NCBI GenBank assembly: GCA_035221665.1
Contig: CM069154.1
Coordinates: forward strand, 5,332,001-5,396,000
From: Okamejei kenojei
Lineage: Eukaryota
Reading direction: 5' to 3'
DNA: 64,000 nt
The notes beneath the pieces were generated by a model that did not search any database, was not told where the DNA came from, and saw only the letters and a list, made by a program, of their open reading frames with translations. A program made the position numbers and the translations under genes. Shown one piece after another: positions 6,228-64,000 of this stretch; within the stretch, counting starts at the first letter, position 1; every line of letters begins with the position of its first letter.

Positions 6228-6323
6228 ATGGCAGTGGGACAGGGAGAATTCACCCACCAGAAACAGCCCAGATCCAGGGAACAGTCGCTCTGTTGGTTCT
6301 TGTCGCTGTTGGTCTCACATCAG
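6228..6323 (+). CDS. Copy A exon 1, signal peptide (..GTVALLVLVAVGLTS/G)
   Basis: Hydrophobic leader ends at donor CAG|GTAAAA. ATG 6228 is out of frame by one G versus copy B (ccagggaa vs ccaggggaa), while upstream ATG 6167 is in frame. Confidence 0.75.
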
Positions 6324-11448: not shown

Positions 11449-11773
11449 GGTCAAGGGGAGTAACTGAACCCGAGGAGGTGAGGGGAGAGTTGGGGCAGTC
11501 GGTCACTGTGGAATTTCAGTATGATTCGAAATATAGAGATTACAACAAGCTGTGGAGTAAAGGTGATGATTACCAGTCATCTTCTACCGTGGTTTCTACT
11601 GATGACCCACGACAAGGGAGAACATCGATAACTGATGACAAAACACAACAGATAAATTTCAGTAACCATCAACAACCTGGAGAAGAGTGATGAAGGACAC
11701 TACTGGTGTGTGATAGCAAAGGGAAAACATTCACACAATGAATCGACCTCCATCTCATTGAAGGTTTCTGAAG
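11449..11773 (+). CDS. Copy A Ig V-set domain 1 exon (B-strand Cys->Phe, +1 frameshift)
   Basis: cacag|GG acceptor and GAAG|gtacgt donor; GQSVTVE(F)QY..KLWSKG..GRTSITD..LEKSDEGHYWC. Confidence 0.85.
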
Positions 11774-12686: not shown

Positions 12687-13015
12687 GGTCAGGGGGAATA
12701 ACTGGACCCAAGGATGGTGACGAGAGAGTTGGGGCAGTCGGTCACTGTGGAATGTCGGTATGGTCAGGAATACAGTGACAACAGGAAGCTATGGAGTAAA
12801 GGTTATTATTACCGGTTATCTAAGACCGTGGTTTCTACTGATGACCCACGACAAGGGAGAACATCGATGACTGATAACAAAACACAACGGATACTTTCAG
12901 TAACCATCGACAACCTGGAGAAGAGTGATGAAGGACGCTACTGGTGTGTGATAGTAAAAAAGGAAATCTTTTTCAAGCAATGAAAGGACCTCCATCTCAT
13001 TGAAGGTTTCTGAAG
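12687..13015 (+). CDS. Copy A Ig V-set domain 2 exon (two +1 indels)
   Basis: GQSVTVECRY..KLWSKG..LSVTIDNLEKSDEGRYWC; same splice sites as D1. Confidence 0.85.
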
Positions 13016-14469: not shown

Positions 14470-15420
14470 TCCGAACTTTTTGTATTATTATAGGGCAGTG
14501 CATATTAAGAATAATTTACTGCTTGGACAGTTCTACCCAACAGACAGAATGAATAAGAATGGAGAAAGAGGACTGTTCTCCTTGTAATATAGGAGCGATC
14601 CTCTTCTCCCCGATAAAACTGAACAACACAATATATAAGAATAACCTAATTATACATGAGACAATAAGAATTTGGAAACAAATAAAATTATCCTTAAAAT
14701 TAAGAAACCTATCTTTGTTAATGCCAATAGTGAATAACCCTTCATTTAAACCATCTCTTATTGATAAAACATATAATCAATGGGAAAGAATGGGAATTAA
14801 AAGGATCGGTGATATGTCTGAAATGGGAAATCTGTTATCATTCCAACAATTCCAATTAAAATTTTAACTGAAAAATAACCAATATTTTAAATATCTTCAG
14901 ATCTGCGACTTCATGAAGAAATACATACAAAGATATCAAAACATAACTTTAGATCCACTGGAAGAAGCAATGAACATTAAGGCTGACTCACAGAAATTAA
15001 TATCATATTTATATGATAGTATTTTAAAAATATTTTAAACCATCGACAGAGGCACTTAGAGAAGAGTGGGAATGAGAATTAATGATAAAAATTACGAAGG
15101 AAACATGGGAAACGTATTTGATATATACATAAATGTTTTTGATTAATGTAAGATAAAATTGAATAAAAATTTTACATAGATTATATTACTCAAAAACTAG
15201 ATTGAATAAATTCTATCCAAAACTTCCCCCATTTGTGATAAATGTCTATCCCAAAATTCAACGATAACACACTCTTTTGTCTCCTGCATAAAACGTTATA
15301 AATTCTGGAGTGATATTTTTGAAATATTTACAAAATTATTTAAGATAAAAATGGAACCTAATACTTAAATGATTGTATTTGGAGTAATGGCAGATGGGAA
15401 TAAATTGAACTTCATCTCAA
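14470..15420 (+). mobile_element. Older L1 ORF2 3' fragment, left part; interrupted by the younger L1 and resuming at 22220-22790
   Basis: ETIRIWKQIK..WERMGIKRIGD; contiguous in copy B at ~61690-63205 with an A-rich tail. Confidence 0.8.
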
Positions 15421-15430
15421 ATTTTATTTT

Positions 15431-21400: not shown

Positions 21401-22219
21401 GATCTTCGTGTTTCTCGCGACCTTCAGGAATCCCTTGCGATCCTCAAGTTCTGTCTTCTCTGATAGCCTTCTAGCTGAGTACATTTCTCTGTTGTTTTAG
21501 TCGGCAAAGTCATTAGACGTTCATGTTCTGTTATCAGCTTTGCTGTAGACTCAGTACTTGCCTCCGCTATCTGTTCAAAGTTCTTCATGCCATCTGCCTG
21601 TTGTTCCAGCACATTCTCAATAGGATTAATCTTATTTTGAAAGTCTTTTTTAACCTTTTCAAGTTTTTTCTCCATCTTACTTTCCATATCCTTAAGCATT
21701 TCAATAAGTTCTTTCTTCAAATCTTCCGATACTTTCTTGACCTTTTTTTCAATTTTTAACATTGTTTCTTTTTGAAATTCATTCAGTTGATTTTTCATCT
21801 GATCCATCTGATTGTTTATTTGACATATTTCTTCCTTTAATTCTTCCTTTATACCTTTCATTTCTTCCTTTAATTCTAGCTTTAAAATAGCCATCTGTTG
21901 AGATATAAAAGTTTTCAAATCCTCACCTTCCGCTTTTGTGCCTGGTTTCTTGGAAACATCTTCCATGGAGCTAGTCCTACTCGAATCCGAGGCTTCACCT
22001 CGGTTTTCTGTCGGGTTGAACGAGTTTTACTCTTGTCGGTAGGGCTCCGTGGCGTCGACATAGTTAGTCGCGCGGCTGATGACGTCACTCGGCACAGTCG
22101 GTATAGAAACGGAAGGCAGTGTGTAGCAGACAGCCGGTAAGTCTTTTAAAACCCCTTTTTTTCCGATTTTTTACGGAGCTGGCTGGGCGCTATCCTCTAG
22201 GGCTCCATAGCGCCACCGG
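15431..22219 (-). mobile_element. Apparently full-length L1-clade LINE (ORF1 ~20955-22040; ORF2 19991 to ~16100, frameshifted)
   Basis: Coiled-coil ORF1 with RRQNLRI; APE SWNVKG, IQETHL, IGGDFN, RIDYFL; [15 protein letters not shown]; poly(A) tail; TSD attttatttt at 15421-15430 and 22220-22229; absent from copy B. Confidence 0.95.
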
Positions 22220-22790: not shown

Positions 22791-23276
22791 GATATGGACT
22801 TTACACTGAGCCGCACAAACTGCACAAGATGAAATACTCAACGGGTTGGGCAGCATCTGTGGAGAGAGAACGAGAGTTAATGTTTCATGTAGATACCTCC
22901 AACCAAATTGTATTATTTCCAATTCAGTCCACTTAATTAAAATAGTCCATGAATCCACCCGCTCCCAAGTTCTTCTCCAACGTAGAAGACATGGGCCTAA
23001 CTCTAGCAGCAGGAAGATAACACAGCCTGTGGGACTCTGAAGGGCATGAAAGAAGTCTCTGAATGCTTGCGACCATCCGGTGGCATCTTAATGGGTGAGC
23101 CTCCTGTCTAGATCAAGAGGCTTGGTCCATCTATGGTGGCCTCAGAAGGATCTTTGCCCAAATATGTGTAGTGGGATTCAAACAAAGAATCTCCCCCCCA
23201 CACCACTAAAACTGGCACAGGAACGTGCTTTCAGACATTTAATGTTCAAAAACTTAATTTTCTTTATCTCCACAAG

Positions 23277-23436
23277 GGTCTCAAACACAACGCCCAGACA
23301 TGGTCACCACCACCTCTTACAACAATAAGCACAAGGGCTTCCACCACAACTACTCTCACCACCCTGACCTCAAGATGCACCAATCACCAAGAAAGCAAGT
23401 TCCGTTGAGTCTCTTGATTCAACACCTCCCAAACAG
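23277..23436 (+). CDS. Copy A Ser/Thr-rich mucin-like stalk exon
   Basis: tttctttatctccacaag| acceptor and AACAG|gttagt donor; homologous to the open stalk exon of copy B, with three 1-bp insertions (net +3). Confidence 0.75.
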
Positions 23437-24056: not shown

Positions 24057-24172
24057 GGAGGCAGATATATTTTCATGGCAGGTTGTTCTTCCGATTGCCT
24101 TGACAATTGTCTTCCTTCTGTTCATCGCTGCCATTATCCTATGTGTAAAAACAAGGCAGAAAAAGAAAACTG
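24057..24172 (+). CDS. Copy A transmembrane exon (EADIFSWQVVLPIALTIVFLLFIAAIILCVKTRQKKKT)
   Basis: Polypyrimidine ttgcag| acceptor and G|gtaagt donor; ~22 hydrophobic residues with no charge, then a basic stop-transfer. Confidence 0.9.
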
Positions 24173-28801: not shown

Positions 28802-28957
28802 GAAACCCCTGTCATTTATACCACCGTGACAACCCGTTCTCCAGCTAGCACGGAGAATAATTACATGAACCTTCAGGATCTGAACACACAAGGACAAGCC
28901 AAGAGGCAAGGTGCCGCAGAAGTTGTGTACGCAACAATTCTCACTGATAATAATTAA
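28802..28957 (+). CDS. Copy A terminal cytoplasmic exon: ETPVIYTTVTTRSPASTENNYMNLQDLNTQGQAKRQGAAEVVYATILTDNN*
   Basis: Acceptor AG at 28800-28801; two ITIM matches (VIYTTV, VVYATI) and YMNL; TAA at 28955-28957. Confidence 0.85.
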   Translation, partial: ETPVIYTTVTTRSPASTENNYMNLQDLNTQGQAKRQGAAEVVYATILTDNN

Positions 28958-35000: not shown

Positions 35001-38000
35001 TAATACATAATAAAATTGTAGCATTGAAGTATAAATTAAATAAAATATATACTGATCAAGTTTTAAAATACTACCAACATACTAAACAATTGTTGTTTGA
35101 ATTTGGAGACAAACCACAAAAACTATTGGCTCGACAATTAAGGAAAATTGAAGCGGAAAAAAATTATACATAGGATTAAAATCACAAAACGGTGAATTAT
35201 TAATACAACCCCAAGGATATTAATGAAAGATTTATGCAATATTATAAAAATTTGTATACTGGTAACACAACAGTAAATAAAACAGAAATAGATGCCTTTT
35301 TAAATGTATGTAACTTAAAAAAGAATTAGATTTACAAAATAGAGAATTTTTAAATGCCGATATTTCAATAAAAGAAATCCAAAGAATCTATTAAATCTTT
35401 AAAAAAATGGTAAAACTCCAGGACCAGATGGTATAGGCTCGGAATTTTATAAAATTTTTCATGCCCAAATGGTCCCATATTTAAAAATCATTATATGAAC
35501 AGATATATACACAAGAGAAATTACCAGACACATTGAACAAATCTATTATAACATTTATACCCAAAATAAATAAAGATTTGGATGACCCAGGATCGTATAG
35601 AGCAATTGCTTTATTAAATACGGATCAAAAAATTTTAACAAAAATTCTTGCACAAAGACTAAGCAAAATTGTTAACGAATTAATTCATCCTGATCAAACA
35701 GGATTTATACCTAAAAGATATTCTTCATATAATTTAAGACGGTTATTTAATATCATATATTCGAAAAGAAGTGATAAAAAAAGGCTTAGTAGTCATCTCG
35801 TTGGATGCAGAAAAAGCTTTTGACCAGGTGGAATGGCCTTATCTATTTTCGGTGATGGAAGCCTTTAAGCTTGGTGATAAGTTTACTACTTGGATTAAAT
35901 TATTATATGCAAATCCAACAGCTAGAATAATAACAAATCATATGTTATCAACTAAGTTTAGTTTATCTCGAGGTTGTAGACAAGGCTGTCCTTTATCACC
36001 ATTACTGTTTGCGTAGCAATCGAACCTCTTGCTCAAAGGGTAAGATTACATCCAGAAATATATGGATACGATACTAAAGATACTAAGAATAAAATCTCGT
36101 TATATGCGGACGATATATTACTTTATATTACTAAACCGGAAATAAGTATCTGTAATTTGTTAAAACTAATAACGGAATTTGGTTTTAATTTCAGGATACA
36201 GTATCAATTGGAATAAAGTGAACTTATGCCAATAACCATGAATAATTTTACAGATATTACAACAATTTCCCTTTTAAGATAACAAATGAAAATATTAAAT
36301 ATCTTGGTATTTTTGTTACAAAAAGATTTGACTCTTTATTTAAATCTAATTTCCCGTTATTATTGAATAAATTAAATAAAAATATCTTATATTGGAAAAG
36401 CTTACCTATCTCAATGTTAGGTAAAATAAACGCAATAAAAATGATTTTCCTCCCACAATTATTATATTTATTTCAATCAATCCCGATATATCTCTCTAAA
36501 AATTTCTTTAAAAAAGTAGATTCAATAGTCACTAACTTTATTTGGGATTATAAAAATCATAGAATAAATAAAAAACATTTATGTAAAGCTAAAATAAACG
36601 GGGGCTTAGCTTTACCAAATTTTATGTTTTATTATTGGGCAGTTAACATTAGAAATATGAATTTTTGGTTAGGAGAAATAGATAATAAACCAAATTGCTT
36701 AAAAATGGAAAGAGAAGACTGTTTTCCATTTGAAAATTAGCTCTATAATAATTTGCTAATACTAATGTACCTAAGAAAATTTATAGTGAAAATTTGATAA
36801 TAGAAAAGTGGAATACGTATTTGGAAACAAATAAAGAAAACACTAAAACTAAAATTTATACCGCTAGCTCTTACAATTGCCAACAACTTTACGTTTAAAC
36901 CGTCAATGATGGATAAAGCTTTTATTACAATGGAAAAATAAAGGAATTTTAAAATATAGGGGATCTTTATAAGGATAATTCTTTTCTTTCATTTCAAGAA
37001 TTACAACAAACTTACGGGCTTCATAATAATGAATATTTCAGATATTTACAAATCAGAAACTATATCTCTGCAAATACACAAGAACTTAGAAATAGAAAGA
37101 GTGAAATTTTAGATGAAATGCTTGAATAAACATCCAAATACAGAAAAAATGATATCATAACATTTACAATATTTTGTTGGAAAGTGATATCCCATCATCG
37201 GAAATACATAGACAGCGCTGGGAAAATGAACTAAGTCAAATAATAAGTCCAGAAATATGGGAAGAAAGCCTACAACATATACATTACTGCTCTTTAAATG
37301 CTAAACATGCACTTATACAGTTTAAAATCTTACATAGATTACATTATTCTAAATCTAAACTACATAATATATTTTCCAAAACTATCACCTATATGTGATA
37401 AATGTCAAATCATGGAAGCAACTCTGTCACACTCATTTACTAATTGTACGAAAATTTTAGAATATTGGAATGAAATATTCAAAATAATCTCGAAAGTTAT
37501 TAATATTACTATGATTTATGACCCAAAGTTAATCATACTTGGAATACCGGAAACGGAACAAATAATTACAAGGAATCATAGAACTTTTATCGACTATTCT
37601 TTAATAATTGGGAAAAAATTAATATTAAAATTTTGGAAAGGCCCTGTATCCCCAACAATTAAAATGTGGAATACAGAAATGACGGAGACACTTCACTTGG
37701 AGAGATTGAGACTTGTCCTTATGGACAGGTTAGATCTCTTCAAGGAGATATGGTCTCCCTATATTAAATATCTACAGGGTCACAATGGTTCGGCGCAGGG
37801 ACTTGACTGAGGCCTGAATATCTGAATGGATGAAGAAATACACATAACAAATCATGAATGTATCTCCAAGATTGGATTATTTAGTAATACTTCAATCTCC
37901 ATCAAACTTTTCACATTTTCTTTTCTATTTTCTATTCTTTTTCTCTATCTTTCTATCTTTAATTAAGGAAAAAATTATAGAAACATATTATATACATTTT

Positions 38001-38494
38001 TAATATACGTACACACTTATTTCTGTTCGTATGAAAAGATTATAGATGTCTTAAAACTTGTAATTATATAAAACTATGTATTTTCAATTATACAATAATT
38101 ATGAAATATAAAATTAACAATAATACAAACATTATTAATATTTTGATAACATTATGAATATCAAAAAAACTTTGTTTAAGATTGGGTACTACGTAGTTAT
38201 ATTAGCGGGGATTTCTATTTGGTAATTAGAAGAATATCTATGATTTGAGAAATCTAAGTGTATTACTTATTTTAGGAATATACTACATTATACTCCCAAT
38301 TATATAAAATAAATAACAATGAAATGTATAATGGATAATACTACAATTATCATAAATAGTATTAATCAATAATCAATATGTTATAATTTTATACATTATA
38401 TAACTCTCAATGTCGTATAAGAGTGTACTTGGTATATATTGTTTCTACAATAAAAAATTTTTTAAAAAAATAAAAATAAAAAAAAATAAATAAA
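32030..38494 (+). mobile_element. Near full-length L1 (5' end truncated within ORF1; ORF1 to ~33085; ORF2 33969-37810, frameshifted)
   Basis: Same family as the 15431-22219 element; LYADD; C-terminal CxxC..H...C; poly(A); TSD aaagtccaga at 32020-32029 and 38495-38504. Confidence 0.95.
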
Positions 38495-39254
38495 AAAGTC
38501 CAGATACTCCACATCCACTGGCACTCCCTTATCCATTCTACCTGTTACATCCTCAAAAAATTCCAAAAGATTAGTCAAGCATGATTTCCCCTTCATAAAT
38601 CCATGCTGACTTTGACCGATCCTGTCACTGCGTTCCAAATGCGCTGCTATAACATCCTTAATAATCTATTCCAGCATCTTCCCCACTACCAATGTAAGAC
38701 TAACAGGTCTATAATTCCTCGTTTTCACATTCGCGAGTGGTCCCCGTAACCTTTGACTCTCTTACCCTGAGTCAATCATGCTTACAATCTTCGCAATGTA
38801 AAGTTCTGCGATTGGAGCTCACGTTCCTGGTCACACTATGCTTGACACTTTCCCAGCACCGCTGACATGCAGTAAATGATTGCATTCATTGCACAACCAC
38901 CATTTTTAACTCATACCAATAACAAATTGCTCAAAACTGCAAACCAAACCAGAACTGCCCATTGAAGTCAAGGCACAGTACTCTCCTTATTACTGAAATG
39001 GCCACTCAGCTGACACTGGCATTTAAGTTTGGTTTAGTTTAGAGGAACAGTGGCGGTGGAGGCCGGTTCTCTGGATACTTTCAAGAGAGAGCAAGATAGG
39101 GTTCTTAACGATGGCGGAGTCAGGGGATATGGGGAGAAGGCAGGAACGGGGTACTGATTGGGGATGATCAGCCATTGAATGGCGGTGCTGGCTCAAAGGG
39201 CCGAATGGCCTACTCCTGTACCTATTGTCTATTGTCTATTGTCTATTGAACCAA

Positions 39255-47979: not shown

Positions 47980-48076
47980 ATGGCGGTGGGACAGGGAGAA
48001 TTCACCCACCAGAAACGGCCCAGATCCAGGGGAACAGTCGCTCTGTTGGTTCTTGTCGCTGTTGGTCTCACATCAG
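47980..48076 (+). CDS. Copy B signal-peptide exon
   Basis: gacATGG start context; 32 codons + 1 nt; CAG|gtaaat donor. Confidence 0.8.
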
Positions 48077-51000
48077 GTAAATCGTTGTTTTACAAAATGC
48101 TCTGTCCTTTAGAATTATTTACCAGTGCCTTGAATTATTTGTAAATACAGACCTGTCTGTACTGTGTGGGGAGCTGATGATGAATTGCTCAACACTCGTT
48201 AGTTCCTGTAGAGACTTCCATCAGCGGTTGTTGTCGTGTTGTGTGCAGCCAAATTGCACACAGCTCGCTCCCTGTGGAGAAGGGAGATAACTACCTACAG
48301 CTTGCCTTGCCTTGTGGACCTCACTGAAACTTACCAAATAGTGAAAGGCCTGGATAGAGTGGATGGTGGAGGATGTTTCCACTTGCGGAGAGTCTAGGAT
48401 CAGAGGTCACAGCCTCAGAATTAAAGAACGTTCCTTTAGGAAGGAGATGGGGAGGCAATTTCTTTAGTTAGGTGGTGAATCTGTGGAATTCATTGCTACA
48501 GGAGGCTGTGGAGGGCATGTCTATAGATATTTCTAAGGCCGAGATTAGATCGATTCTTGATCAGTAACTGGTGTTAGGAGTCTGGGGAGAAGACAGAAAG
48601 ATAGATCAGCATGATTGAATGGTGGAGAGTAGACTTGATGGGCCAAATGGCCTAATTCTGCTCCTAGTACTAATTAACTTAGATCTGTTCTTCAGAAATT
48701 TTACTAGCACTTGAATTATTTTGAGAACAGAGCAGACTACTGGGCTACGAGCTGCTAAAGATAAAAGTGCTTGCAGACTCTGTTCTTTCCTGCACTAATG
48801 ACTGTTGTGATGCTGTGCGCAGCCAACTTGCACACAGCTAACTCCTGTAGAAAATGATCCGACAGCCGGCCTTGTTTTGATCTTGGGTGTTGGGGTAACT
48901 CTTTGCCCTGGACCAGAGAGTTAGCTCCACTATTTCTGGTGCAAACTATCTCCCAGGTTAACTTTTCTCAGTGACTTGACAGCAGATCAGCTAAATGCTG
49001 TTACCCCTTGCATATCTCTTGACTTTTTCCATCCCTCGCTGACTGTTGGTCTGAAGACGGGTCTCGACCTGAAACATCACCATTGCTTCTCTCCAGAGAT
49101 GCCGCCTGACCCGCTGAGTTACTCTACGCAGCCATTTTTAGTGTCCATCAAAGACACACGGCACTCCCTCACGCACTGCAATGGGAAATGTTGAATTAAA
49201 TCTTAGCACATTCAAAGAAAAAACCTGTGAGACCAGCCTTTGGGAACAGATGGGCATTTTCAAAATTTTTTTTTTGGAGGGAAGCACCAGTGTGACTGTC
49301 CAATTTAGCATTTTGGAGAAGTTGAGAGTAATCTCTCCTGAGAAAAAAAACAGCTGCCTTTACAGGACTCTGCTGCTCGAGCTGTTCTCACACTGTGCTT
49401 TCCCCAGCCTCTGAGTTCCTCCTTCAAGGCATTTGTATTTGTGGCTCGTGTGAGACGGACCTGGACTGATCTGATCATGTGTCTCCATCCCAGATCTGAA
49501 TCTGAGAGTTTCACATGGTGGTTAGAGTCTAGGGATACAGTGTAGAAAACAGGCCCTTCATGCCCAACTTGCCCATCACCGGCCAACCATGTCTCAGCAA
49601 CACTAGTCCCACCTGTCCATGTTAGGATCAATGTCCCTACAAACCTGTCCTATCCATGTACCCAGGGCCGGCCTTAAGCCGTTTGGACGATTGCTCCCAA
49701 TTGGGCCGCGCGAGTACGTGGGCCCCACGCCAGAGTTATCTACTCTCGGCTCAGGTAGATCTACCTGGGTGGAGGGGGCGGCGGATAGAGAGGGGCGGAG
49801 ATAGAGTAGAGGGGGAGGGGGAAGAAAGGGGTAGACGGGGTAGATTGGGGAACGGAGAAGGGGGAGAAGGGGGAGAGGGGGAGGTGGGTCGTGTTTGCTC
49901 ACGGCAGCGCTCCCGCCCTTCCAGTCGCCGTGCTTCCCACACAGCCCCAGCTCCACCCCTCTCTCTCCCGGGGAGATGCGATAGTGAACAATACAGGGAG
50001 GGCCGGGCCGGGGGTTGGTTTCCCCCCCCCCTCCCCTGAGCGACGTTTACAAACATTCGGCCTCAGCTCACACCCCATCCGCCTGGACCCCGGCCTCAGC
50101 TCCCGCCACGGGCCCTCTCCCTCCTTCTTCTCTTCCCTCCCACACACCATCATGCACAGACCAACTAACACACACAACTAAGTTAGGATGGGGTAGAAGC
50201 CCAAAGGGTAGGATGGGGCTGAAGCCCAAAATCTAATGCCTGGATTGGTTTTTCACCAATGGTTATTGGTTTTCCAGGATCTATTTAATTAAATTACCCC
50301 CCCCTTTTTTTTTTAATCTTTTCACAGTCACAAAACCATTGTGGTATTGTAACTATGTACTTTTCAGAGGTGATCTACACATTTTGTTTGTTACTTGTAG
50401 GCTTACACGTATGCAATTTTATATTTAAAATGTAGCTTAGATCAGTTTGGTCCATTAAGTCGGCATGCACTTTTTAAGTGCAAAATGTTGATTACTTTGC
50501 ATTCTACCATAGAGATATGAAGTCCAGAATTAGACTTTAATTATATTTCTATGAATCTAGACCTTGGCTGGGAACCTGGGGCTCAACCAAATCGTTACCA
50601 CTTGGGCCCCACAACTCCTTTGGCCGCCCACCTGCATGTACCTGTCTAACTGTTTCTTAAAATGATGGGATAGTCCCTGCCTCAATTACCTCCTCTGGCA
50701 GCTTCATCCATACACCCACCCAGCCTTTGTGTGAAAAAGACACATCATAATTATTCCAGGTGGACGTTGGGACTGGAGTTTGAAAACATCAGTGGCAGAT
50801 CCAGCTTCCTCCACAGGCGGGAAGTTTAGTTCAATGGGGCACAAAGTGCTGGCATAACTCAGTAGGTCAGGCAGTATCTCATGGTCTTTACTGAAATGTC
50901 ACCTATCCATGTTCTCCACAGATGCTGCCTGACCTGGCTGAGTCACCACTGGCATCACAGGCAGCTGGCTATTCAGCTTTAGTAAAGCACAAAGTGCTGG

Positions 51001-54000
51001 AGAGGTAGGGTGAAGCAGCAGGGCAGGCAGATCTCTGGAGAACATCGATAGGTGACGTTTTGGGTTGAGACCTGAATTAGGGGAAGGCCAGATGAGGAAA
51101 AACCTTTTCACCCAGAGTTGTGAATCTGTAGGAATTCTTTGCCACAGAGGGCAGTGGAGGCCAAATTCACTGGATGTATTCAAGAGAGAGTTAGATATAG
51201 CTCTTAGGGCTAATGAAAATTCATGGGATAGGGGGATGCAAGCAGAACAAGGTACTGATTTTGGATGATCAGCCATGAACAAGTAGGACCTTGTCACCAA
51301 AACATCGCATCACTAGTAAAGAGAGCGCAGCAGCGTTTGCACTTTCTGCGCCGGATGAGAAGAGCTCACCTCCATCCCGTCCTCACCACTTTCTAAGGGG
51401 CACCATAGAGAGCATTTTGACAGCTGATCTGTCTGGTTGGGGACTGCAAAGCCTCCGACTGGAAGTCCGTGCACGAGAGTGGTGAGGACGGCTGAAAAAA
51501 ATCATGGGGACTTCTCTTCCTTCAATCCGGGACATTGCGCGCAAACGTTGCTTGTCCAAGGCCAACAGCATTATTAAAAAGACCCCACACATCTTTCCAT
51601 CATGGACTGTTCACTCTGCTGCCTCGGGCAAAAGGTTATCGCAGGTATAAGGAGCAGAAGGCCAGGTTCTGCAACAGCCTCTTCCCAGAGCCATCAGACT
51701 CTTGAATTCCATATAATGTGCCGCCACATATTATACTATTTTATCTTTTTATCTATTGATCTTTTTATATATTTTATCCTTTTGTTATTTTTATGTTAAC
51801 ACGGTGAGCCAGATGCAACGAAATTTCATTCCAACTTGCATGTTGTTGGTTGTATTTTTGAATGACAATAAAGTCTTTGATTGAAAATCATATTGAATGG
51901 CAGCAGTGCTGGCTCGAAGGGCCGAATTGCCTACTCCTGCGCCTTATTCTATGGTTATACTTTCTATGAATCGTTACCTATCACTTTCTCCAAGAGATAG
52001 TTCCTGACCCGTTGAGTTACTCCAGCACTTGAGTCCTTTGTGTATTAACCAGCATCTGCAGTTCCTTTGTTTCTACTAGTTCAATGGGGATGTGGGTTGT
52101 AGTGAGATTGAACACTATTGTAGTGTGATTGAAACCCGTCGGTTTTCTCCAGAGATGCTGCCTGTCCCGCTGAGTTACTCCAGCTCTTACATAGAAAGAA
52201 ACATAGAACAACATAGAAATTAGGTGCAGGAGTAGGCCATTCAGCCCTTCGAGCCTGCACCGCCATTCAATATGATCATGGTGATCATCCAACTCAGTAT
52301 CCCGTACCTGCCTTCTCTCCATACCCTCTGATCCCATAGCCACAAGGGCCACATCCAACCACTCTTAAATATAGCCAATGAACTGGCCTCAACTACCATG
52401 TGTGGGCAGAGAGTTCCAGAGGACTCACCACCCTCTGTGTGAAGAAAGTCTTCTCATCTCGGTCTTAAGGATTTCCCCCTTATCCTTAAGCTGTGACCCA
52501 TTGTCCTGGACTTCCCCAACATCGGGAACAATCTTCCTGCCATCTAGCCTGTCCAACCCCTTAAGAATTTTGTTAAGTTTAAATTTCTATAAGATCCCCT
52601 CTTAATCTCCTAAATTCCAGAGAGTATTAACCGTAGTCTATCCAGTCTTTCTTCATAAGGACAGTCCTGACATCCCAGGAAGAATCAGTCTGGTGAACCT
52701 TCTCTGCACTCCCTCTATGGCAATAATGTCCTTCCTCAGATTTGGAGAGACCAAAAACTGCACGCAATACTCAGGTGTGGTCTCACCAAGACCCTGTACA
52801 ACTGAAGTAGAACCTCCCCTGCTCCTGTACTCAAAATCCTTTTGCTATGAAAGCTAACATACCATTCGCTTTTTTTTTTTTTTTCACTGCCTGCTGCACC
52901 TGCATGCCTACTTTCTCAATGACTGGTGTACCATGACACCAGGTCTCGCTGCATCTCCCTTTTCCTAATCGGCCACCATTTTAATAATAGTCTGCTTTCC
53001 TGTTTTTGCACCAAAGTGGATACCTCACATTTATCCACATTATACTGCATCTGCCAAACATTTGCCACTCACCCAGCCTATCCAAGTCACCTTGCAGTCT
53101 CCTAGCATCCCTCCACAGCGAACACTGCCCCCCAGCTTAGTGTCATCCGCAAACTTGGAGTATTGCCTTCAATTCCTCATCCAGATCATTAATATATATT
53201 GTAAAAGCTGGGGTCCAGCACTGAGCCCTGCGGTACCCACTAGTTAACTGCCTGCCATTGTATTTTAACGTGAAAAGGACCGTTTACTCCTACTCTTTAC
53301 TTCCTGTTTGCCAGCCAGTTCTCTATCCACATCAATACTGAACCCTAATACCGTATGCTTTAAGTTTGTATACTAATATCTTATGTGGGACCTTGTCGAA
53401 AGCCTTCTGGAAGTCCAGATATACCACATCACTGGTTTCTCCTTATCCACGCTACTAGTTACATCCTCGAAATAATTCACATGATTCGTCAGACATGATT
53501 TACCTTTGTAAATCCATGCTGACTTTGTCAATGATTTCACACTTTCCAAATGTGCTGCTATCCCATCTTTAATAAATGACTCTAGCAGTTTCCCACTACC
53601 GATGTTAGACTAACTGGTCTGTAATTCCCCGTTTTCTCTCTCCCTCCCTTCTTAAAAAGAGGGTTACATTTGCTACCCGCCAATCCTCAGGAACTACTCC
53701 AGAATCTAAAGAGTTTTGAAAGATTATCACTAATGCATCCATATTTCCTGAGCTACTTCCTTAAGTACTCTGGATGCAGCCTATCTGGCCCTGGGGATTT
53801 ATCGGCCTTTAATCTATTCAATTTTACCCAAACACCACTTCCCGACTGACCTGGGGATTTCACTCAATTCCTCTTTGACCCACAGTCCCCTGCTATTTCA
53901 GGCAGATTATTTATGTTTTCCTTAGTGAAGACGGAACCCAAAGTAGTTATTCAATTGGTCCGCCATATCCTTGTTCCCCATGATAACTCACCTGTTTCTG

Positions 54001-57000
54001 ACTGCAAGGGACCTACATTTGTTTTAACTAACCTCTTTCTCTTCAATATCTATAAAAACTTTTGCAGTCAGTTTTTATGTTCCCTGCCAGTTCTCTTTCA
54101 TAATCTATTTTTCCTTCCTAATTAAGCCCTTGTCCTCCTCTGCTGGGTCTCTGAATTTTCTCCAGTCCTCTGGTATGCTGCTTTTTCTGGCTACTTTGTA
54201 CGCATCATCCTTTGCTTTGATACTATCCCCTGATTTTCCCTTGTTATCCACGGATGCACTACCTTCCCCGATTTATTCTTTGTGCCAAACTGGGATGAAA
54301 CAATTTTTGTAGTTCATCCATGCAGTCTTTAAATGTCTTCCATTTGTATATATCCACCGTCAACCCTTTTAGAATTAATTGCCAGTCAATCTTGGCCAAT
54401 TCACGTCTCATACCCTCAAAAAGTTACCTTTCTTTAAGTTCAGAACCATTGTTTCTGAATTAAACAATGTCACTCTCCATCCTAATGGAGAACTCAACCA
54501 TATATTATGGTCACTCTTGCCCAAGGGGGCACGTACAACAAGACGGCTAATTACCCCTTCCTCATACTCAAACCCAGTCTAAAATAGCTGCTCTCTCGTT
54601 GGTTCCTCTACATGTTGATTTAGATAACTATCCCGCATACCATTCCAAAAAATCCTCTTCCTCAGCACCCCTGCCCAATTTGATTAACCCAATCTATATG
54701 TAGATTGAAGTCACCCATTATAACTGTTTTGCCTTTGTCGCACGCATTTCTAATTTCCTGTTTGATACCATCCCCAACTTTCTCTGCTAACTGTTAGGTG
54801 GCCTGTACACAACACCCACCAGCGTTTTCTGCCCCTTAGTGTTTTGTAGCTCTACCCATACCGATTCCACATCCTCCAAGCTAATGTCCTTCCTTTCCAT
54901 TGCTTTAAATGGTGGCCGATTAGGAAAAGGGGAGATGCAGCGAGACCTGGGTGTCATGGTACACCAGTCATTGAAAGTAGGCATGCAGGTGCAGCAGGCA
55001 GTGAAAAAAAGCGAATGGTATGTTAGCTTTCATAGCAAAAGGATTTGAGTACAGGGGAGCAGGGAGGTGTCTACTTCAGTTGTACAGGGTCTTGGTGAGA
55101 CCACACCTGGAGTATTGCGTGCAGTTTTGGGTCTCCAATCTGAGGAAGGACATTATTGCCATAGAGGGAGTGCAGAGAAGGTTCACCAGACTGATTCCTG
55201 GGATGTCAGGACTGTCTTATGAAGAAAGACTGGATAGACTCGGTTTATTACTCTCTGGAATTTAGGAGATTAAGAGGGGATCTTATAGAAACTTACAAAA
55301 TTCTTAAGGGGTTGGACAGGCTAGATGCAGGAAGATTGTTCCCGATGTTGGGGAAGTCCAGGACAAGGGGGTCACAGCTTAAGGATAAAGGGGGGAAAAT
55401 CCTTTAAGACCGAGATGAGAAAGACTTTCTTCACACAGAGAGTGGTGAGTTCTCTGGAAACTCTCTGCCACAGAGGGTAGTTGAGGCCAGTTCATTGGCT
55501 ATATTTAAGTGAGTTGGATGTGGCCCTTGTGGCTAAGGGGATCAGAGGGTATGGAGAGAAGGCAGGTACGGGATACTGAGTTGGATGATCAGCCATGATC
55601 ATATTGAATGGCGGTGCAGGCTCGAAGGGCTGAATGGCCTACTCCTGCACCTAATTTCTATGTTTCTATGTTTCTATGTTTTAATCTCCTCTCTAACCAG
55701 CAACGCTACTCCACCTCCTTTTCGTTTCTCTCTATCCCTCCTGAATATTGAATATCCCTGGATGTTCAGCTCCCAGCCTACGTCACCCTGGAGCCATGTC
55801 TCCGTGATCCCAACTATATCATAATCATTAATATCTATCTGCACGTTCAACTCGTCCACCTTATTACGAATACTCCTTGCATTGAGACACAAAGCCTTCA
55901 GGCTTGTCTTTACAACGCATTTTACTCCTTATACAATTTTGCTGAAAAGTGGCCCTTTTTGATTTTAGCCCTGGTTTTGTCTGCCTGCCACTTTTACCTT
56001 TCACCTTGCTACCTAATGCTTCTACCTCATTTTACACCCTCCTGCCTCTCTGCTCTTGTACCCATCCCCTGCCACATTAGTTTAAATCCTCCCCGACAGC
56101 ACTAGCAAACACTCCCCCAAGAACATTGGTTCCATTCCATTCCAGGTGCAAACCGTCCTGTTTGTACCGGTCCCACCTCCCCCAGAACTGGTCCCAGTGC
56201 CCTAAAAAATTTGAATCCCTCCCCCTTGCACCACTTTTCAAGCCACGTATTCATTTGCATTATCCTCCTATTTCTACTCTGACTGGCCCGTGGTACTGGT
56301 AGTAATCCGGAGATTACTACCTTTGAGGTCCTACTTTTAAGTTTATCTCCTAGCTCCCTAAATTCACCTTGTAGGACCTCATCCCTTTTTTTACCTATAT
56401 CGTTGGTGCCAACATGCACCACGACAACTGGCTGTTCACCCTCCCCCTCCAGAATGTTCTGCAGCCGTTCAGTGACATCCCTGACCTTTGCCCAGGGAGG
56501 CAACATACCATCCTGGAGTCTCGTTTGCGGCCGCAGAAACGCCTATCTATTCCCCTGACAATTTGAATCCCCTATTACTATTGCCCTTCCCCTCTTTTTT
56601 CCCCCCTCATGTGCTGCAGAGCCACCCATGGTGCCATGAACCTGCCTGCTGCTGCATTCCCCTGATGAGCCATCTCCCTCAACAGTATCCAAAATGGTAT
56701 ACCTGTTTAGGAGGGTAGATGACCGCAGGGACTCTTTGTGTCTATCTTTGGTGTAAACCAGCACCTGCAGTTCCTTGATGCTGCACATGATCTTTGCGAA
56801 ACCATGAAGCTGTCTGAACAGCACAAATTACATGTTTTTTTATTGTTAACCAACCAACCAACCCAGCCAGACCACAGTCTACAAAGAATGGACCCGGCAT
56901 CCTCTCCTTCCCATTCACCACTTCACACCTACTTAAGGCAAGACTCCAGTATGAAAATACTGTCACTTCACACCCACTCACAAAGACTGGGCCCTTCTAC

Positions 57001-60000
57001 GCCCACCCCCCTCCAATCACCACTTCACACCAAATCACCCACACCCTCTGTCACTTATCAAATATCAACAATAAAAATAGAGGAGGAGGAGAGGCATTTC
57101 AGAGGACAAAAAAGCCGGAAATCTCCAGGACTTGACAATGTTTCCCCCTCGACTCTTAAGCTCTGTGCCAAACAGCTGGCACCGGTCTACACAGACATTT
57201 TAAACCAGTCCCTGCAAACATGTACTGTCCCTGCCTGCTTCAAAGTCTCCACTATTGTCACTGCACCCAAAAAGGCAAGGATTACTTGTCTTAATGACTA
57301 CAGGCCTGTCACACTGACCTCTGTAGTCATGAAGACACTCTAAAGGCATGTGCTGGCCAAGCTGAAAAATATCACAAACCCAGTGCTGGACCCTCTGCAA
57401 TTTGCATATCGGGCCAATAGATCTGTGGATGATGCAGTCAACCTGGGCCTGCACTTCATCCTAGACCACCAGGGGACCTATGCGAGGATCCTGTTTATTG
57501 ATTTTAGCTCTGCATTCAACACCATTGTGCCAGAGCTACTACACTCCAAACTTTCCAAGTTGACTGTGCCTGAACCCCTCTGTCGGTGGATCACCAGCTT
57601 CCTGACAGACAGGAAGCAGCATGTGAGGCTGGGAAAGCACATCTCGGACCCCCAAACGCTCAGCATAGAGGCACCGCAAGGCTGCGTACTCTCCCCTCTC
57701 CTCTACTCTCTCTGCACCAATGACTGCACCTCTACAGACTCCTCTGCCAAACTTCCCAAGTTTGCGGACGATACAACCCTGATTGGACTGATCCAGGATG
57801 GGGAGGAATCTGCCTACAGACAGGAAGTGTCACAGCTGGCGTCCTGGTGCCGTAGCAACAACCTAGAGCTCAATGCTCTTAAGACAGTGAAATTGATTGT
57901 GGACTTTAGGAGAGCTCCCCCTCCCCTCATCTCACTCACCATCAACAACACCACAGTCACATCTGTGGAGTCGTTTAAGTTCCTGGGAAATATCACCTCC
58001 AAGGACCTTAAGTGTGGGCGACCATCAACTCCACAGTCAAAAAGGCACAACAGAGGATGTACTTCCTACGGCAGCTGAGGAAGCACAATCTGCCACAGGC
58101 AATGATGGTCCAATTCTACACGGCCATCGTAGAGTCTGTTCTCACCTTCTCCATCATGGTCTGGTTTGGCTCAGCACCAAGCACGACACCTGGAGGCTGC
58201 AGCGAATCGTCCGATCAGCTGAGAAGGTTATTGGCTGCAACCTTCCCTCCATTGATGAACTGTACACTGCAAGGGCCAGGAAGCGAGCGGGCAAGATCAT
58301 CTCTGACCCCTCTCACCCTGGCCACAAACTCTTTGAATCACTTCCCTCTGGAAGGCGACTCAAAGCTGCCACATAAAAAACTGTTTTTATCCACGAGTAG
58401 TTGCTCTACTCAACAGCCAAAAATCTGTAGCCTCCCTTTGATCTGATATTTTGTTGGTTCACATGCTTAATCAATGGTGTTTTATCATTAATGTTTTATT
58501 ATTATTAATGTTTAGTATTTTCTGAGTGATTCGTAACTGTCACTGTATGTCATGTTGTTACGTGTGGGCGGAGCACCAAGGCAAATTCCTTGTATGTGAA
58601 TACTTGGCCAATAAACTTACTTACTTACTTAAACCTCAGCTTGTGTTGCTGCAGTGTGAGTGATCTTTCATCATTAATGTGCCCACAGGGTCAAGGGGAG
58701 TAACTGAACCCGAGGAGGTGAGGGGAGAGTTGGGGCAGTCGGTCACTGTGGAATGTCAGTATGATTGGAAATATAGAGATTACAGCAAGCTGTGGAGTAA
58801 AGGTGATGATTACCAGTCATCTTCTACCGTGGTTTCTACTGATGACCCACGACAAGGGAGAACATCGATAACTGATGACAAAACACAACAGATAGTTTCA
58901 GTAACCATCAACAACCTGGAGAAGAGTGATGAAGGACACTACTGGTGTGTGATAGCAAAGGGAAAACATTCACACAATGAATCGACCCCCATCTCATTGG
59001 TGGTTTCTGAAGGTACGTTGACGATCTCTCTCCTCACGCTCCCAGATGTGAAAATTCCCAGCCTGGGAATTTCGGCCTCAGTCCAGATGGTGACTCGGTG
59101 CCACATCCCCGGGGGTCGAGGTGGATGGGGAGGGGGGGGGGGGGTGGTGGTGGTGGTGGTGCATACATCATTTACTGGGCCCACTGTCCCAGGAGCAGTA
59201 TAGGGGGGGGATGTCAGACACCAGCCCCACGGAAGATCCCAGCTACCGCGGTTCTGCTGCTGAGGCTCATTTCCCGAAAGACGATCGCTCTGGGACCAGA
59301 ACCTCCAGAACCAGGTGGGGGAAAACCGGCCCCTCACCCACCAGGGTGGAGAAAGGGAGAAAGGGGTCAAGGGGGAAGGGGAGGGCGCAGGTTAGTAGAA
59401 GATAGTTAAAATTAGAGAATTCAACGTTCAAACCGTTGGGTTGTAAACTACCTGAGCGTAATATGAGGTGCGGTTCCTCCAACCTGCATGTGGCCTTACT
59501 CTGGCAATGGAGGAGGCCCAGGACAGACAGGTCAGTGTGGGAATGGGAAGGGACGTTGACAGGGTTGGCAACCGGGAGATCAAGAAGGGTCCCGACCCGA
59601 AAAGGCCACCTACCCTTTTACTCCAGAGATGCTGCCTGATCTGTCATCAGTCTGAAGAAGGGTCTTGACCCGAAACGTCGCCTATTTCCTTCACTCCATA
59701 GATGCTTCCGCCCTCACCAGCTGAGTTTCTCCAGCATTTTTGTCTACCTGCCGAGTTACTCCAGCACTTTGTGTCAATCTTTGGTGTAAACCAGCACCTG
59801 CAGTTCCTTGCTACACATGATCTATGCAAAACCATGAACCTGTCTGAACAGCACAAATGACATGTTTTTTATTGTTAAACCTCAGCTTGTGTTGCTGCAG
59901 TGTGAGTGATCTTTCATCATTCATGTGCCCACAGGGTCAGGGGGAATAACTGGACCAAAGGAGGTGAGGGGACAGTTGGGGCAGTCGGTCACAGTGGAAT

Positions 60001-63000
60001 GTCGGTATCGTCAGGAATACAGTGACAACAGCAAGCGATGGCTTAAAGGTTATTATTACCGGTTATCTAAGACCGTGGTTTCTACTGATGACCCACGACA
60101 AGGGAGAACATCGATAACTGATAACAAAACACAACGGATACTTTCAGTAACCATCGACAACCTGGAGAAGAGTGATGAAGGACACTACTGGTGTGCGATA
60201 CACGTACGATGGAACTTCGATGAAAGGACATCCATCTCATTGAAGGTTTCTGAAGGTACGTTGAAGATCTCTCCTCACTCTCCCAGATGTGAACATTCCA
60301 GCCTGGGAATTCCTGGCCTCGGTCCTGACGGTGATTCGGTGCCACATCGCCGGGAGTCAGGGTGAAGGGGGGGAGCACATTTACAGGGGTCCATGAGCCC
60401 ACTGTCCAAGGAGCAGTGTGTGTATGTGTGTGTGTGGGGGGGGGGGGGGGACGGGGACGGGGAGGGGGGGACCTCGTGAACGGGGACCGGCGGTTCTGCT
60501 GCTGGCGGCTCATTTCCCCAAAGACGATCGCTCCAGGACCAGAACCTCTGCCGTCCCCTCACTGTGGCAGGAGGGGTGGAACCGCCCCCTCACCCTCTCC
60601 CCCTGCCCGTCACTGTCACACCCACACACACACATCATCTGAAGAAAGGTCCCAACCCTATACATCGTCCGTTCATTCCTTCCACAGATGCTGCCGGACC
60701 TGCTGAGTTACTCCAGCACTTTGTGTTTTGCTCAAGATTCCAGCACCTGCAATTCCTTGTGTCTCACAAACTTTGGTGATTCATGAGCTCAGTTTATTGT
60801 TGTCGTCTGTTCCGACGTACAGGGAAAAGCTTTTACCGTGTTTCCAATGAGGGCCAAGTCACTGGGTATTTTTAGGATTCACAGGTTCTCGATTAGTATG
60901 GGTGTCAAGCGATATGGGGAGAAGGGAAGAAAATGGGGTTGAGAGGGAGAGATAGATCAGCCATGATTGAATGGCGGAGTAGACAAAAATGGGCCAAATG
61001 ACCTCATTCCTCCCCTAACACATGAACTTCATTGCAAGAGGATTTCAGTACAGGAGTGGAGAGGTTCTTCTGCAGTTGTATAGGGGTCTGGTAAGACCAC
61101 ATCTGGAGTGTTGTGTCCAGTTTAGGTCCCCTAATTTGAGGAAGGACATCCTTGTGATTGAGGCAGAATCACGAGATTGATCCATGGGAAGGCGGGACTG
61201 TCACACGAGGAAAGATTGAAAAGACTCGGCTCTAAACTGGAGTTTAGGAGGATGAGTGGAGATCTTATAGAAACATATAAAATTATAAAAGGACTGGACA
61301 AGCTCGATGAAGGAAAAATGTTCCCAATGTTGGGCGAGTCCAGAACCAGGGGGCACAGTCTTAGAATAAAGGGGAGGCCATTTAAGACTGAGGTGAGAAA
61401 AAACTTTTTCACCCAGAGAGTTGTGAATCTGTGGAATTCTCTGCCACAGAGGGCAGTGGAGTCCAAATGACTGGATGGATTTAAGAGAGAGTTAGATGGA
61501 GCTCTCGGGGCTAGTGGAATCAAGGGATATGGGGAGAAGGCAGGCATAGGTTATTGATTGGGGACGTTCAGCCCTGATCACAATGAATGGCGATGCTGGC
61601 TCAAAGGGCCGAAAGGCCTCCTCCTGCACCTATTTTCTATGTTTCTATAACTTATGAACGAAGAATCCTCATGAGATGACTGATATGTCATCTTCCGAAC
61701 TTTTTGTATTATTATAGGGCAGTGCATATAAAGGATAATTTACTGCTTGGACAGTTCTACCCAACAGACAGAATGAATAAGAATGGAGAAAGAGGACTGT
61801 TCTCCTTGTAATATAGGAGCGATCCTCTTCTCCCCGATAAAACTGAACAACACAATATATAAGAATAACCTAATTATACATGATACAATAAGAATTTGGA
61901 AACAAATAAAATTATCCTTAAAATTAAGAAACCTATCTTTGTTAATGCCAATAGTGAATAACCCTTCATTTAAACCATCTCTTATTGATAAAACATATAA
62001 TCAATGGGAAAGAATGGGAATTAAAAGGATCGGTGATAATGTATGAAATGGGAAATCTGTTATCATTCCAAAATTCCAATTAAAATTTTAACTGAAAAAT
62101 AACCAATATTTTAAATATCTTCAGATCTGCGACTTCATGAAGAAATACATACAAAGATATCAAAACAACTTTAGATCCACTGGAAGAAGCAATGAACATT
62201 AAGGCTGACTCACAGAAATTAATATCATATTTATATGATAGTATTTTAAATATAGATTTACCATCGACAGAGGCACTTAGAGAAGAGTGGGAATGAGAAT
62301 TAATGATAAAAATTACGAAGGAAACATGGGAAAACGTATTTGGTATATATACATAAATGTTCAATTAATGTAAGATAAAATTGAATAAAAATTTTACATA
62401 GATTATATTACTCAAAAACTAGATTGAATAAATTCTATCCAAATATTTCCCCCATTTGTGATAAATGTCTATCCCAAAATGCAACGATAACACACTCTTT
62501 TGTCTCCTGCATAAAACTGCATATAAATTCTGGAGTGATATTTTTGAAATATTTACAAAATCTATTTATCTATTTAAGATAAAAATGGAACCTAATACTG
62601 AAATGATTGTATTTGGAGTAATGGCAGATGGGAATAAATTGAACTCATCTCAAATTTTATTTTTTAATTATCGGTTAATAATGGCAAAAAAACGTATACT
62701 TTTGGAAAAATACAGCCATACTAATGCTTAAAATGTGGATTTCAAACATGTTGGACACTGCACATCTTGAGGAAACGCGATTCCTCCTAATAGATAAATC
62801 AGACCAATTTTTAACGAGTTGGTCTCCATTTGTCGACTTTTTGGAAGCATATGGTGCAACAAAATGGTAGAAGCTAACTGTTTCAGGATTGGGAGAGGGA
62901 TGGTCACGAATATAGATAACGATCTCCTTAATCTCTTACTTTCTACTCTTTCTCTTTCTTTTTTCTTTTTCTTTCTCAACTTTCTTCTTTCACACTTTTT

Positions 63001-63867
63001 TTCTTTCTCACACACTATATATCACATGTTTCTATCTTTTATTATCTTTTCTCTCTTTTTCTTTTTCATTATTAAAAAGAATAATAATAAGAAGCTGTAC
63101 ATACAATGTAACATGTCAATATATATTAGGCACCTTGATGCCATATTCCTGTACTTACTTTTAATAAAATAAAAAATAAAAAAAAATAAAATTTAAAAAA
63201 AAATACAAAAATGAGATGACTGATATGGACTTTACACTGAGCCGCACAAACTGCACAAGATGAAATACTCAACGGGTTGGGCAGCATCTGTGGAGAGAGA
63301 ACGAGAGTTAATGTTTCATGTAGATACCTCCAACCAAATTGCATTATTTCCAATTCAGTCCACTTAATTAAAATAGTCCATGAATCCACCCGCTCCCACT
63401 TTAAGTTCTTCTCCAACGTAGAAGACATGTGCCTAACTCTAGCAGCAGGAAGATAACACAGCCCGTGGGACTCTGAAGGGCATGAAAGAAGTCTCTGAAT
63501 GCTTGCGACCATCCGGTGGCATCTTAATGGGTGAGCCTCCTGTCTAGATCAAGAGGCATGGTCCATCCATGGTGGCCTCAGAAGGATCTTTGCCCAAATA
63601 TGTGTAGTGGGATTCAAACAAAGAATCTCCCCCCCACACCACTAAAGTGGCACAGAATGTGCTTTCAGACATTTAATGTTCAAAAACTTCATTTTCTTTA
63701 TCTCCACAAGGGTCTCAAACAAGCCGCCCAGACATGGTCACCTCCATCTCTACAACAATAAGCACAAGGGCTTCCACCACAACCACTCTCACCACCCTGA
63801 CTCAAGATGCACCAACCACCAAGAAAGCAAGTTCCATTGAGTCTCCTGGTTCAACACCTCCAAACAG
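47980..63867 (+). CDS. CD300/pIgR(CMRF35)-like receptor, copy B, 5' part; exons 47980-48076, 58689-59012, 59935-60255, 63711-63867; continues past the window
   Basis: Spliced frame is open: MAVGQGEFTHQKRPRSRGTVALLVLVAVGLTS / IgV1 (108 codons) / IgV2 (107 codons) / GSQTSRPDMVTSISTTISTRASTTTTLTTLTQDAPTTKKASSIESPGSTPPN. Confidence 0.88.
49663..50634. mobile_element. Non-autonomous hAT-like DNA transposon
   Basis: 8-bp TSD catgtacc (49655-49662 and 50635-50642); imperfect TIRs CAGGGCCGGCC / GGCCGCCCACCTG. Confidence 0.75.
52189..56731 (-). mobile_element. CR1 LINE, 4.5 kb, with SGNH-esterase ORF1 and APE-RT ORF2; present only in copy B
   Basis: IVIGDS and VVVHVGTNDIG; CLNARSIRNK..DIVGITETWL; (ttctatgt)n tail; ctctt repeated at 52184-52188 and 56732-56736; empty site at ~9470. 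Confidence 0.92.
54906..55680 (+). mobile_element. Nested CR1 3' fragment inserted in opposite orientation into the endonuclease region of the host CR1
   Basis: [22 protein letters not shown]; (tttctatg)3 tail; tttaa at both junctions. Confidence 0.88.
56848..58630 (+). mobile_element. Rex1/Babar-like LINE (duplicate of 9581-11390)
   Basis: ORF 57350-58078 RT: LDPLQFAYR, APQGCVLSPLLY, KFADDTT. Confidence 0.9.
58689..59012 (+). CDS. Copy B Ig V-set domain 1 exon (intact)
   Basis: VTVECQY..KLWSKG..DEGHYWCVI; canonical B-F Cys pair, C-strand Trp and DxGxYxC. Confidence 0.92.
59935..60255 (+). CDS. Copy B Ig V-set domain 2 exon (intact)
   Basis: VTVECRY..KRWLKG..DEGHYWCAIHVRWNFDERTSISLKVSE. 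Confidence 0.92.
61690..63205 (+). mobile_element. Older L1 3' fragment, uninterrupted (empty site at ~62654)
   Basis: Equals 14470-15420 joined to 22220-22790. Confidence 0.8.
63711..63867 (+). CDS. Copy B mucin-like stalk exon
   Basis: Open S/T/P-rich frame, phase 1 in and phase 2 out, matching the TM exon phase seen in copy A. Confidence 0.85.
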
Positions 63868-64000
63868 GTTAGTAACTTGAAGAGCCAACTCAGCCTCACC
63901 TGAGAACAAATTAGTTAAGTTCAATTCAGCTCAATTTAAAGATACAGTGTGGAAATGGACCCTTTGGCCCACTGAGTCCGCTCTGAGCAGCGATCTCCCC

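Follow-up and report, generated by a model that had tools for sequence, protein, structure and literature searches.

The domains of CD300/CMRF35-like receptors are recognized by a second disulfide bond, between strands C and C′, and by a YWC(R) motif, as described in PMC3031540. In CD300lf this bond (Cys36-Cys44) forms, together with Met100, Tyr34, Trp89, Gln41 and Arg42, the floor of a phosphocholine cleft that is also used by murine norovirus (PMC6166816). Here we describe a 64,000-nucleotide stretch of DNA from the skate Okamejei kenojei (contig CM069154.1, positions 5,332,001 to 5,396,000, forward strand; hereafter the window), which holds four V-set immunoglobulin (Ig) exons in two tandem CD300-like receptor genes, named gene 1 and gene 2, and in which the cysteines of the second bond are absent from all four. 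Similar states are already known: domain 2 (D2) of human pIgR has no C-C′ bond and its C and C′ strands keep a similar orientation (PMC4786434), and the N-domain of carp SITR has a single cysteine pair (PMC3031540). The positively selected codons of pIgR are located mostly in domain 2, according to PMC9716071. We found no literature on C-C′ loss in elasmobranchs, subscription papers being outside the coverage of the search.

Gene 2 (47980-64000+, plus strand) includes, in this order, a leader, two Ig exons named D1 and D2, a stalk, a transmembrane (TM) exon and two tail exons. When joined at the canonical splice sites these exons produce an intact 403-amino-acid open reading frame (ORF) with two Ig domains, a stalk, a TM segment and a tail of the immunoreceptor tyrosine-based inhibition motif (ITIM) type. 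Coordinates outside the window are given on contig C24 of this genome (G000).

47980..48076, plus strand: leader exon, 97 nt
58689..59012, plus strand: Ig V-set exon D1, open frame, AG/GT ends; B-F cysteines kept, C/C′ slots Ser/Ser
58796..58798, plus strand: C-strand cysteine slot of D1 (equivalent of CD300lf Cys36), AGT, Ser
58820..58822, plus strand: C′ cysteine slot of D1 (equivalent of CD300lf Cys44), TCT, Ser
59935..60255, plus strand: Ig V-set exon D2, open frame; B-F cysteines kept, C/C′ slots Leu/Ser
60042..60044, plus strand: C-strand cysteine slot of D2, CTT, Leu
60066..60068, plus strand: C′ cysteine slot of D2, TCT, Ser
63711..63867, plus strand: Ser/Thr-rich stalk exon
G000:C24:5396477-5403420, just past the window: TM exon and two tail exons with ITIM-type motifs

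The C-C′ stretch reads KLWSKGDDYQSSSTVV in D1 and KRWLKGYYYRLSKTVV in D2. The Pfam V-set scores of the two domains are 57 and 53 bits, and the closest named proteins are from skates (72-80% identity), labeled CMRF35-like or pIgR-like, the latter being a database label that denotes similarity only. The tail carries the motifs VIYTTV, YMNL and VVYATI, the first and last of which we take to be ITIM-type by the ITIM consensus. Judged from these features, gene 2 likely encodes an inhibitory receptor.

The closest described system is mouse CD300lf (CLM-1), or human CD300f (IREM-1), which shares with gene 2 a V-type domain (38% identity, the top structural match, in exact C/C′ register) and the arrangement of stalk, TM segment and inhibitory tail with tyrosine motifs. 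Gene 2 differs from CD300lf in the absence of the Cys36-Cys44 bond, in having two Ig domains, and in the end of complementarity-determining region 3, which is DPM in CD300lf, DER in D2 and NES in D1. With CD300 in general gene 2 has in common the V-type Ig domain with its B-F disulfide, the stalk, the TM segment, the ITIM tail, the existence of partner forms with an Arg-bearing TM segment and the predicted CD300lf fold, but not the single V domain or the second disulfide; since none of the 24 scorable copies described below has a C-C′ cysteine, we file it as CD300-like and not as CD300. The skate receptors MDIR3 and MDIR5 of Rostroraja eglanteria (P0226, P0269) are represented in the same chromosomal cluster by the flanking subfamily described below and also occur with inhibitory and non-inhibitory tails. 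The identity of the window subfamily to these two receptors is no more than 34-40%; it consists of V domains without their mixed V plus constant-like layout, and lacks the C-C′ cysteines that they keep. MDIR1, MDIR2 and MDIR4 were absent from the hits listed. Human pIgR D2 is likewise a V domain of the family without the bond; it is, however, one of the inner domains of an Ig transporter with five, whereas in the window subfamily every ectodomain is without it, and mouse pIgR D2 keeps both cysteines. The pIgR gene is single-copy and its tail is not known to carry paired ITIMs, unlike the tandem genes described here, with their 25 exon loci and ITIM-type tail. Finally, sturgeon and paddlefish CMRF35/pIgR-like domains (P0077, P0080, P0091; 42-44% identity) show the same double Cys-to-Ser change (WSKG/WSRG...S); these bony-fish rows stand outside our trees, and their loss would be independent.

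The C and C′ positions in the skate cluster

A sequence-only reading of the window had proposed that all four Ig domains lack the second disulfide and that the Ser codons AGT and TCT are each one substitution from TGT. The first statement was borne out, the slots being AGT/TCT in three exons and CTT/TCT in the fourth; the second applies to seven of the eight slots, the eighth being a Leu codon (CTT) two changes away. The same reading placed the four domains within 58689..60255, where only D1 and D2 of gene 2 are found; the other two, at 11449-11773 and 12687-13015, belong to gene 1. It was right that three of the four retain the B-F pair, the exception being the D1 exon of gene 1, in which the B-strand Cys codon (11514-11516) is TTT, coding for Phe. 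Its description of the frames as still open is correct for the gene 2 exons and not for the Ig exons of gene 1, which have one and two single-base insertions.

A search of 643 kb of contig C24 yielded 26 exon hits at 25 loci, 15 of them intact. No cysteine was present at either slot in any of the 24 scorable sibling exons of the cluster. The C slot is AGT in 16 copies, CTT in five, and CGT, GGT and ACA in one each, while the C′ slot is TCT in 22 and CCA in two. Of the 24 other Ig hits in this genome, 23 have both cysteines, the remaining one being an unrelated Ig domain on contig C30. This difference indicates that the absence is not due to chance. A large flanking subfamily (C24:5.84-6.29 Mb), which is MDIR3/5-like (57-90% identity), keeps both cysteines.

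The genes of the cluster carry one to three Ig exons each and have either an ITIM-type tail or, instead, an alternative TM exon with an Arg residue (WGVLRWVLF), the Arg form occurring in about half of the genes (G000:C24:5149728-5683144). Genes with an inhibitory tail and genes with the Arg-TM form are also present in sharks and rays. We infer that the cluster has the layout of paired inhibitory and activating receptors.

Several copies have peculiarities of their own. A third, divergent type of Ig exon (FLCKVVSVNSC), with both cysteines kept, flanks and interrupts the cluster (G000:C24:5114089-5114352, 5281749-5281979 and 5734223-5734486). The B-strand Cys is replaced by Phe (TTT) in three copies, namely the gene 1 exon mentioned above, C24:5650773, and the locus L017 (G000:C24:5591010-5591350). 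L017 has an open frame with Arg and Ser at the C and C′ slots, so that its domain would be free of disulfides; the L017 gene yielded no tail exons. The intact domain at L005 (G000:C24:5550011-5550328) has an additional cysteine in the FG loop (WCVICIR).

Loss of the C-C′ bond is repeated across sharks and rays

In three further skate genera, 17 of the 18 domains lack both cysteines, and the remaining one keeps the C-strand Cys. All 33 skate rows form one clade with support of 100/98 in a tree made with the loop columns removed, and the four window domains thus represent one inherited event and not four independent cases, as the sequence-only reading had treated them. Among the orthologous domains outside skates, every one of the 18 rows from stingrays and mantas has both cysteines, and the same is true of whale, zebra, bamboo, epaulette, basking, white and smooth-hound sharks. 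Neither is left in sawfish, in catshark and in one of the horn shark paralogues, and the C-strand Cys stands alone in electric ray (4/4), sevengill shark and sawshark. The retention of both in the flanking subfamilies, in stingrays and mantas and in most sharks supports the view that they are ancestral. An approximately unbiased (AU) test on 39 rows chosen from 103, plus three added sharks, rejected a single clade of the double-loss rows (p 5e-13) and of all rows without the C′ Cys (p 2e-4). Loss of the bond has been repeated across sharks and rays.

The 103 rows include 62 with both cysteines, 34 with neither, seven with the C-strand Cys only and none with the C′ Cys only, which suggests that the C′ Cys was lost first. 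A domain of Amblyraja (P0012), nested among Ser copies, has a C-strand Cys that would be an unpaired thiol and is possibly a reversion. The horn shark paralogues P0029 and P0030 (WCKGYYYLSC and WREGYYYLSS) differ at five of about 105 domain residues, two of which are these cysteines; the chance of both being among five changes, calculated by hand, is about 0.002. This pair indicates that the Tyr-rich loop is older than the loss and that the two cysteine changes go together. Among the 341 domains of the wider family that could be scored, with 108 of 449 unscored, 35 (in 18 of 141 proteins) have no cysteine at the slots, 17 a single one and 289 at least two. The loss is not special to the window genes and recurs in sharks, rays and the wider family.

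A link between the loss and the type of tail was considered and rejected: the Cys-less forms of horn shark and catshark have an Arg-type TM segment, those of sawfish and skate include ITIM forms, and the Cys-keeping stingray forms are of both types.

Predicted fold, selection and competing explanations

The slots align without gaps with Cys36 and Cys44 of mouse CD300lf (K33-R-W35-L36...S44-K-T-V in the skate versus K33-Y-W35-C36...C44-K-T-L). AlphaFold2 models have a mean predicted local distance difference test (pLDDT) score of 94.8 for D2 and 91.7 for D1, with 93-96 over residues 31-50, although neither this score nor the model is a measure of dynamics. The best match of the D2 model was mouse CD300lf (Foldseek TM score 0.90-0.94), and the superposition that had been proposed as a check gave a Z score of 20 and a root-mean-square deviation of 1.2 Å over 105 residues; the fold is predicted to remain that of CD300lf. 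The equivalent of the metal-binding Asp98 of CD300lf, with the loop register counted from strand G, is D in four of the 15 intact domains of the cluster, N in nine, H in one and I in one. The FG loop of D2 includes the sequence WNFD (window 60210-60221), which is reminiscent of the WFND motif of the TIM phosphatidylserine receptors.

Selection was analyzed on the 15 intact exons using our own codon models, with a fixed tree and scaled branch lengths, and not codeml. Model M2a was preferred over M1a with a likelihood-ratio test (LRT) statistic of 96 and an omega2 of about 9; each half, analyzed with a tree of its own, remained significant (LRT 34 and 41). Regional omega values were 11.7 for the CC′ loop, 9.0 for FG and 4.8 for BC. 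The C-strand slot is among the fast sites with a posterior of 1.0, and so are six of ten pocket-equivalent positions versus 16 of 96 elsewhere (p 0.005). Pairwise counts in the six codons of the CC′ loop gave a proportion of nonsynonymous differences (pN) of 0.34 versus a synonymous proportion (pS) of 0.065, with an intron divergence of 0.02-0.09, while pN was lower than pS in the leader and TM exons but not in the alternative TM exon. Both approaches uphold the proposal that the CC′ loop is part of a diversifying surface.

Spliced members of the family are present in the sequencing runs X2, X9 and X14, which are of unrecorded kind and have three organism codes; X1 is a DNA run, and X7 and X21 are DNA-like. 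Among the runs listed for the D2 exon none is recorded as RNA, a blank to which we attach no weight. Contigs from X2, X9 and X14 connect the leader with an Ig exon, or an Ig exon with the stalk or a further Ig exon, and their cover ends at the 3′ end of the exon, whereas the DNA run X1 reads on into the intron past the end of the Ig exon. Among the rows listed, the depth of AG at the first slot was 147/147 in X2, where the whole cover is thus non-Cys, 31.5/43.8 in X9 and 66.6/84.1 in X14. These contigs are family members other than the exact gene 2.

The explanation that we favor, and hold to be somewhat probable, is that the gene 2 subfamily shows an old and tolerated loss of the bond in the fast-evolving ligand pocket of an inhibitory receptor that has activating-type partners. 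The bond would be dispensable for the fold and would have disappeared in steps, on one occasion in the skate lineage or earlier and on several others elsewhere, the C′ Cys changing to Ser first and the unpaired C-strand Cys being then replaced by Ser, Arg or Leu. The B-F bond and the C/C′ hairpin would hold the fold, and the slot would now line a variable pocket that lies between the loops CC′ and FG and that diversifying selection may reshape in a cluster of paired inhibitory and activating receptors, the pressure coming probably from microbes that exploit pockets of this kind. By analogy with CD300lf, the most likely ligand would be a lipid head group or a microbial mimic.

Several results weigh against this explanation. 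In the pieces listed, the spliced contigs stand 7-41 letters apart from the exon in the window, and the kind of run is unrecorded. Ten of the 25 exon loci are broken, including both Ig exons of gene 1, and the trees are unable to separate loss from regain. The framework omega is 1.7 and not below 1; in the pairwise counts pS matches pN in the BC (0.23 versus 0.21) and FG (0.35 versus 0.33) loops, so that only the CC′ signal survives; and the pocket set was picked after the site list had been seen, its p value being 0.048 without the FG loop. The selection signal could be inflated by gene conversion, misalignment of the FG loop or assembly errors. In addition, the MDIR3/5-type neighbors that keep the bond also diversify the CC′ loop (omega 3.4, LRT 59), and diversification therefore needs no bond loss.

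This last result is consistent with the main rival, neutral dispensability, which we consider possible but on the whole unlikely. According to it the bond does little, drift turns the C′ Cys into Ser, the thiol left free is purged, ligand binding is unchanged and the diversification of the loop is a separate process. The one-step changes from TGT to TCT, AGT or CGT, the 35 of 341 family domains without cysteines at the slots and the unchanged strand geometry of human pIgR D2 (PMC4786434) all fit this idea, but in CD300lf the bond forms the pocket floor, the C-strand slot is itself one of the fast sites, and the presence of both cysteines in 289 of the 341 domains indicates that the bond is usually constrained. 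An early loss of the C′ Cys at the base of the elasmobranch subfamily, or of the batoids, with regain in stingrays and most galeomorph sharks, would mean that the skate state predates skates and that the bond switches both ways. Its absence in skates, electric ray, sawfish, sevengill shark, sawshark and catshark, the single step from TCT to TGT, the thorny-skate domain with a C-strand Cys among Ser copies, and the fact that neither batoid monophyly nor a grouping of sawfish with stingrays is rejected (AU p 0.50 and 0.30) are compatible with this history. We nevertheless regard it as improbable, as the outgroup subfamilies and Polypterus retain both cysteines, the horn shark pair represents a loss over a very short branch, and the deep nodes, based on about 98 columns, are weakly supported.

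The sequence-only reading had attributed to the double loss a new, Tyr-rich and more flexible surface. Many skate loops are indeed rich in aromatic residues (one to three Y/F/W), and the omega of the CC′ loop is higher in the Cys-less family than in the bond-keeping neighbors (11.7 versus 3.4). However, Tyr-rich loops occur with both cysteines in horn, whale (WCKGYHYITC) and zebra sharks, a single Tyr is present in D1, the models show this loop with high confidence and in the form it has in CD300lf, with the reservation about dynamics given above, and pIgR D2 is a precedent for C/C′ geometry kept without the bond; we consider this origin of the Tyr enrichment and of a greater flexibility very improbable. 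Pseudogene decay, for which the broken loci and the framework omega could be cited, is hardly tenable and has been largely refuted, in agreement with the same reading: gene 2 has an intact ORF, the Cys-less state is common to annotated proteins of three other skate genera, spliced contigs exist, pN is lower than pS in the leader and TM exons, and the C′ slot is TCT in nearly all copies.

Gene 1, repeated elements and implications

Gene 1 occupies the first half of the window and consists of the following features.

6228..6319, plus strand: leader exon, frameshifted in this assembly
11449..11773, plus strand: Ig exon D1, 325 nt; C/C′ slots Ser/Ser (AGT/TCT), B-strand Cys replaced by Phe, one 1-nt insertion
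12687..13015, plus strand: Ig exon D2, 329 nt; C/C′ slots Ser/Ser (AGT/TCT), two 1-nt insertions
23276..23436, plus strand: stalk exon, frameshifted
24064..24171, plus strand: transmembrane exon
28802..28954, plus strand: last cytoplasmic exon, with VIYTTV and VVYATI ITIM-type motifs

The gene (window 6228-28954) has an inverted near-twin at G000:C24:5578586-5596601 (minus strand). Gap openings between the two exceed mismatches (14 versus 12 in 2 kb; 17 versus 9 in 1.1 kb), and assembly errors may account for the frameshifts, or the twin may represent a second haplotype. Decayed reverse-transcriptase elements of the long interspersed nuclear element (LINE) type, recognized from their translations, are located in introns and intergenic DNA (window 10042-11130, 57100-58370, 15400-22000 on the minus strand, and 32500-38500). 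A pair of LINE-type elements upstream of D1 has been duplicated together with the gene.

A bolder proposal is that the C-C′ disulfide acts as an evolutionary switch in the elasmobranch CD300-like pocket, removed stepwise and perhaps restored, repeatedly and under pathogen pressure, and that skates expanded a bond-free family of paired receptors with a different ligand specificity. The switching would be repeated because the bond forms the pocket floor that viruses mimic. We think this distinctly unlikely, though it deserves mention. The surprise is limited, as loss is known in human pIgR D2 and was scored here in about one in ten family domains. The loss of the C-C′ bond probably recurs as a change that a fast-evolving pocket tolerates and is not a single innovation. 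The bond is nonetheless regarded as a hallmark of CD300/pIgR/TREM domains, and elasmobranchs supply natural pairs with and without it, such as the horn shark paralogues, as well as one-cysteine intermediates in electric ray, sevengill shark and sawshark, which make the role of the bond in folding and in the choice of ligand directly testable.

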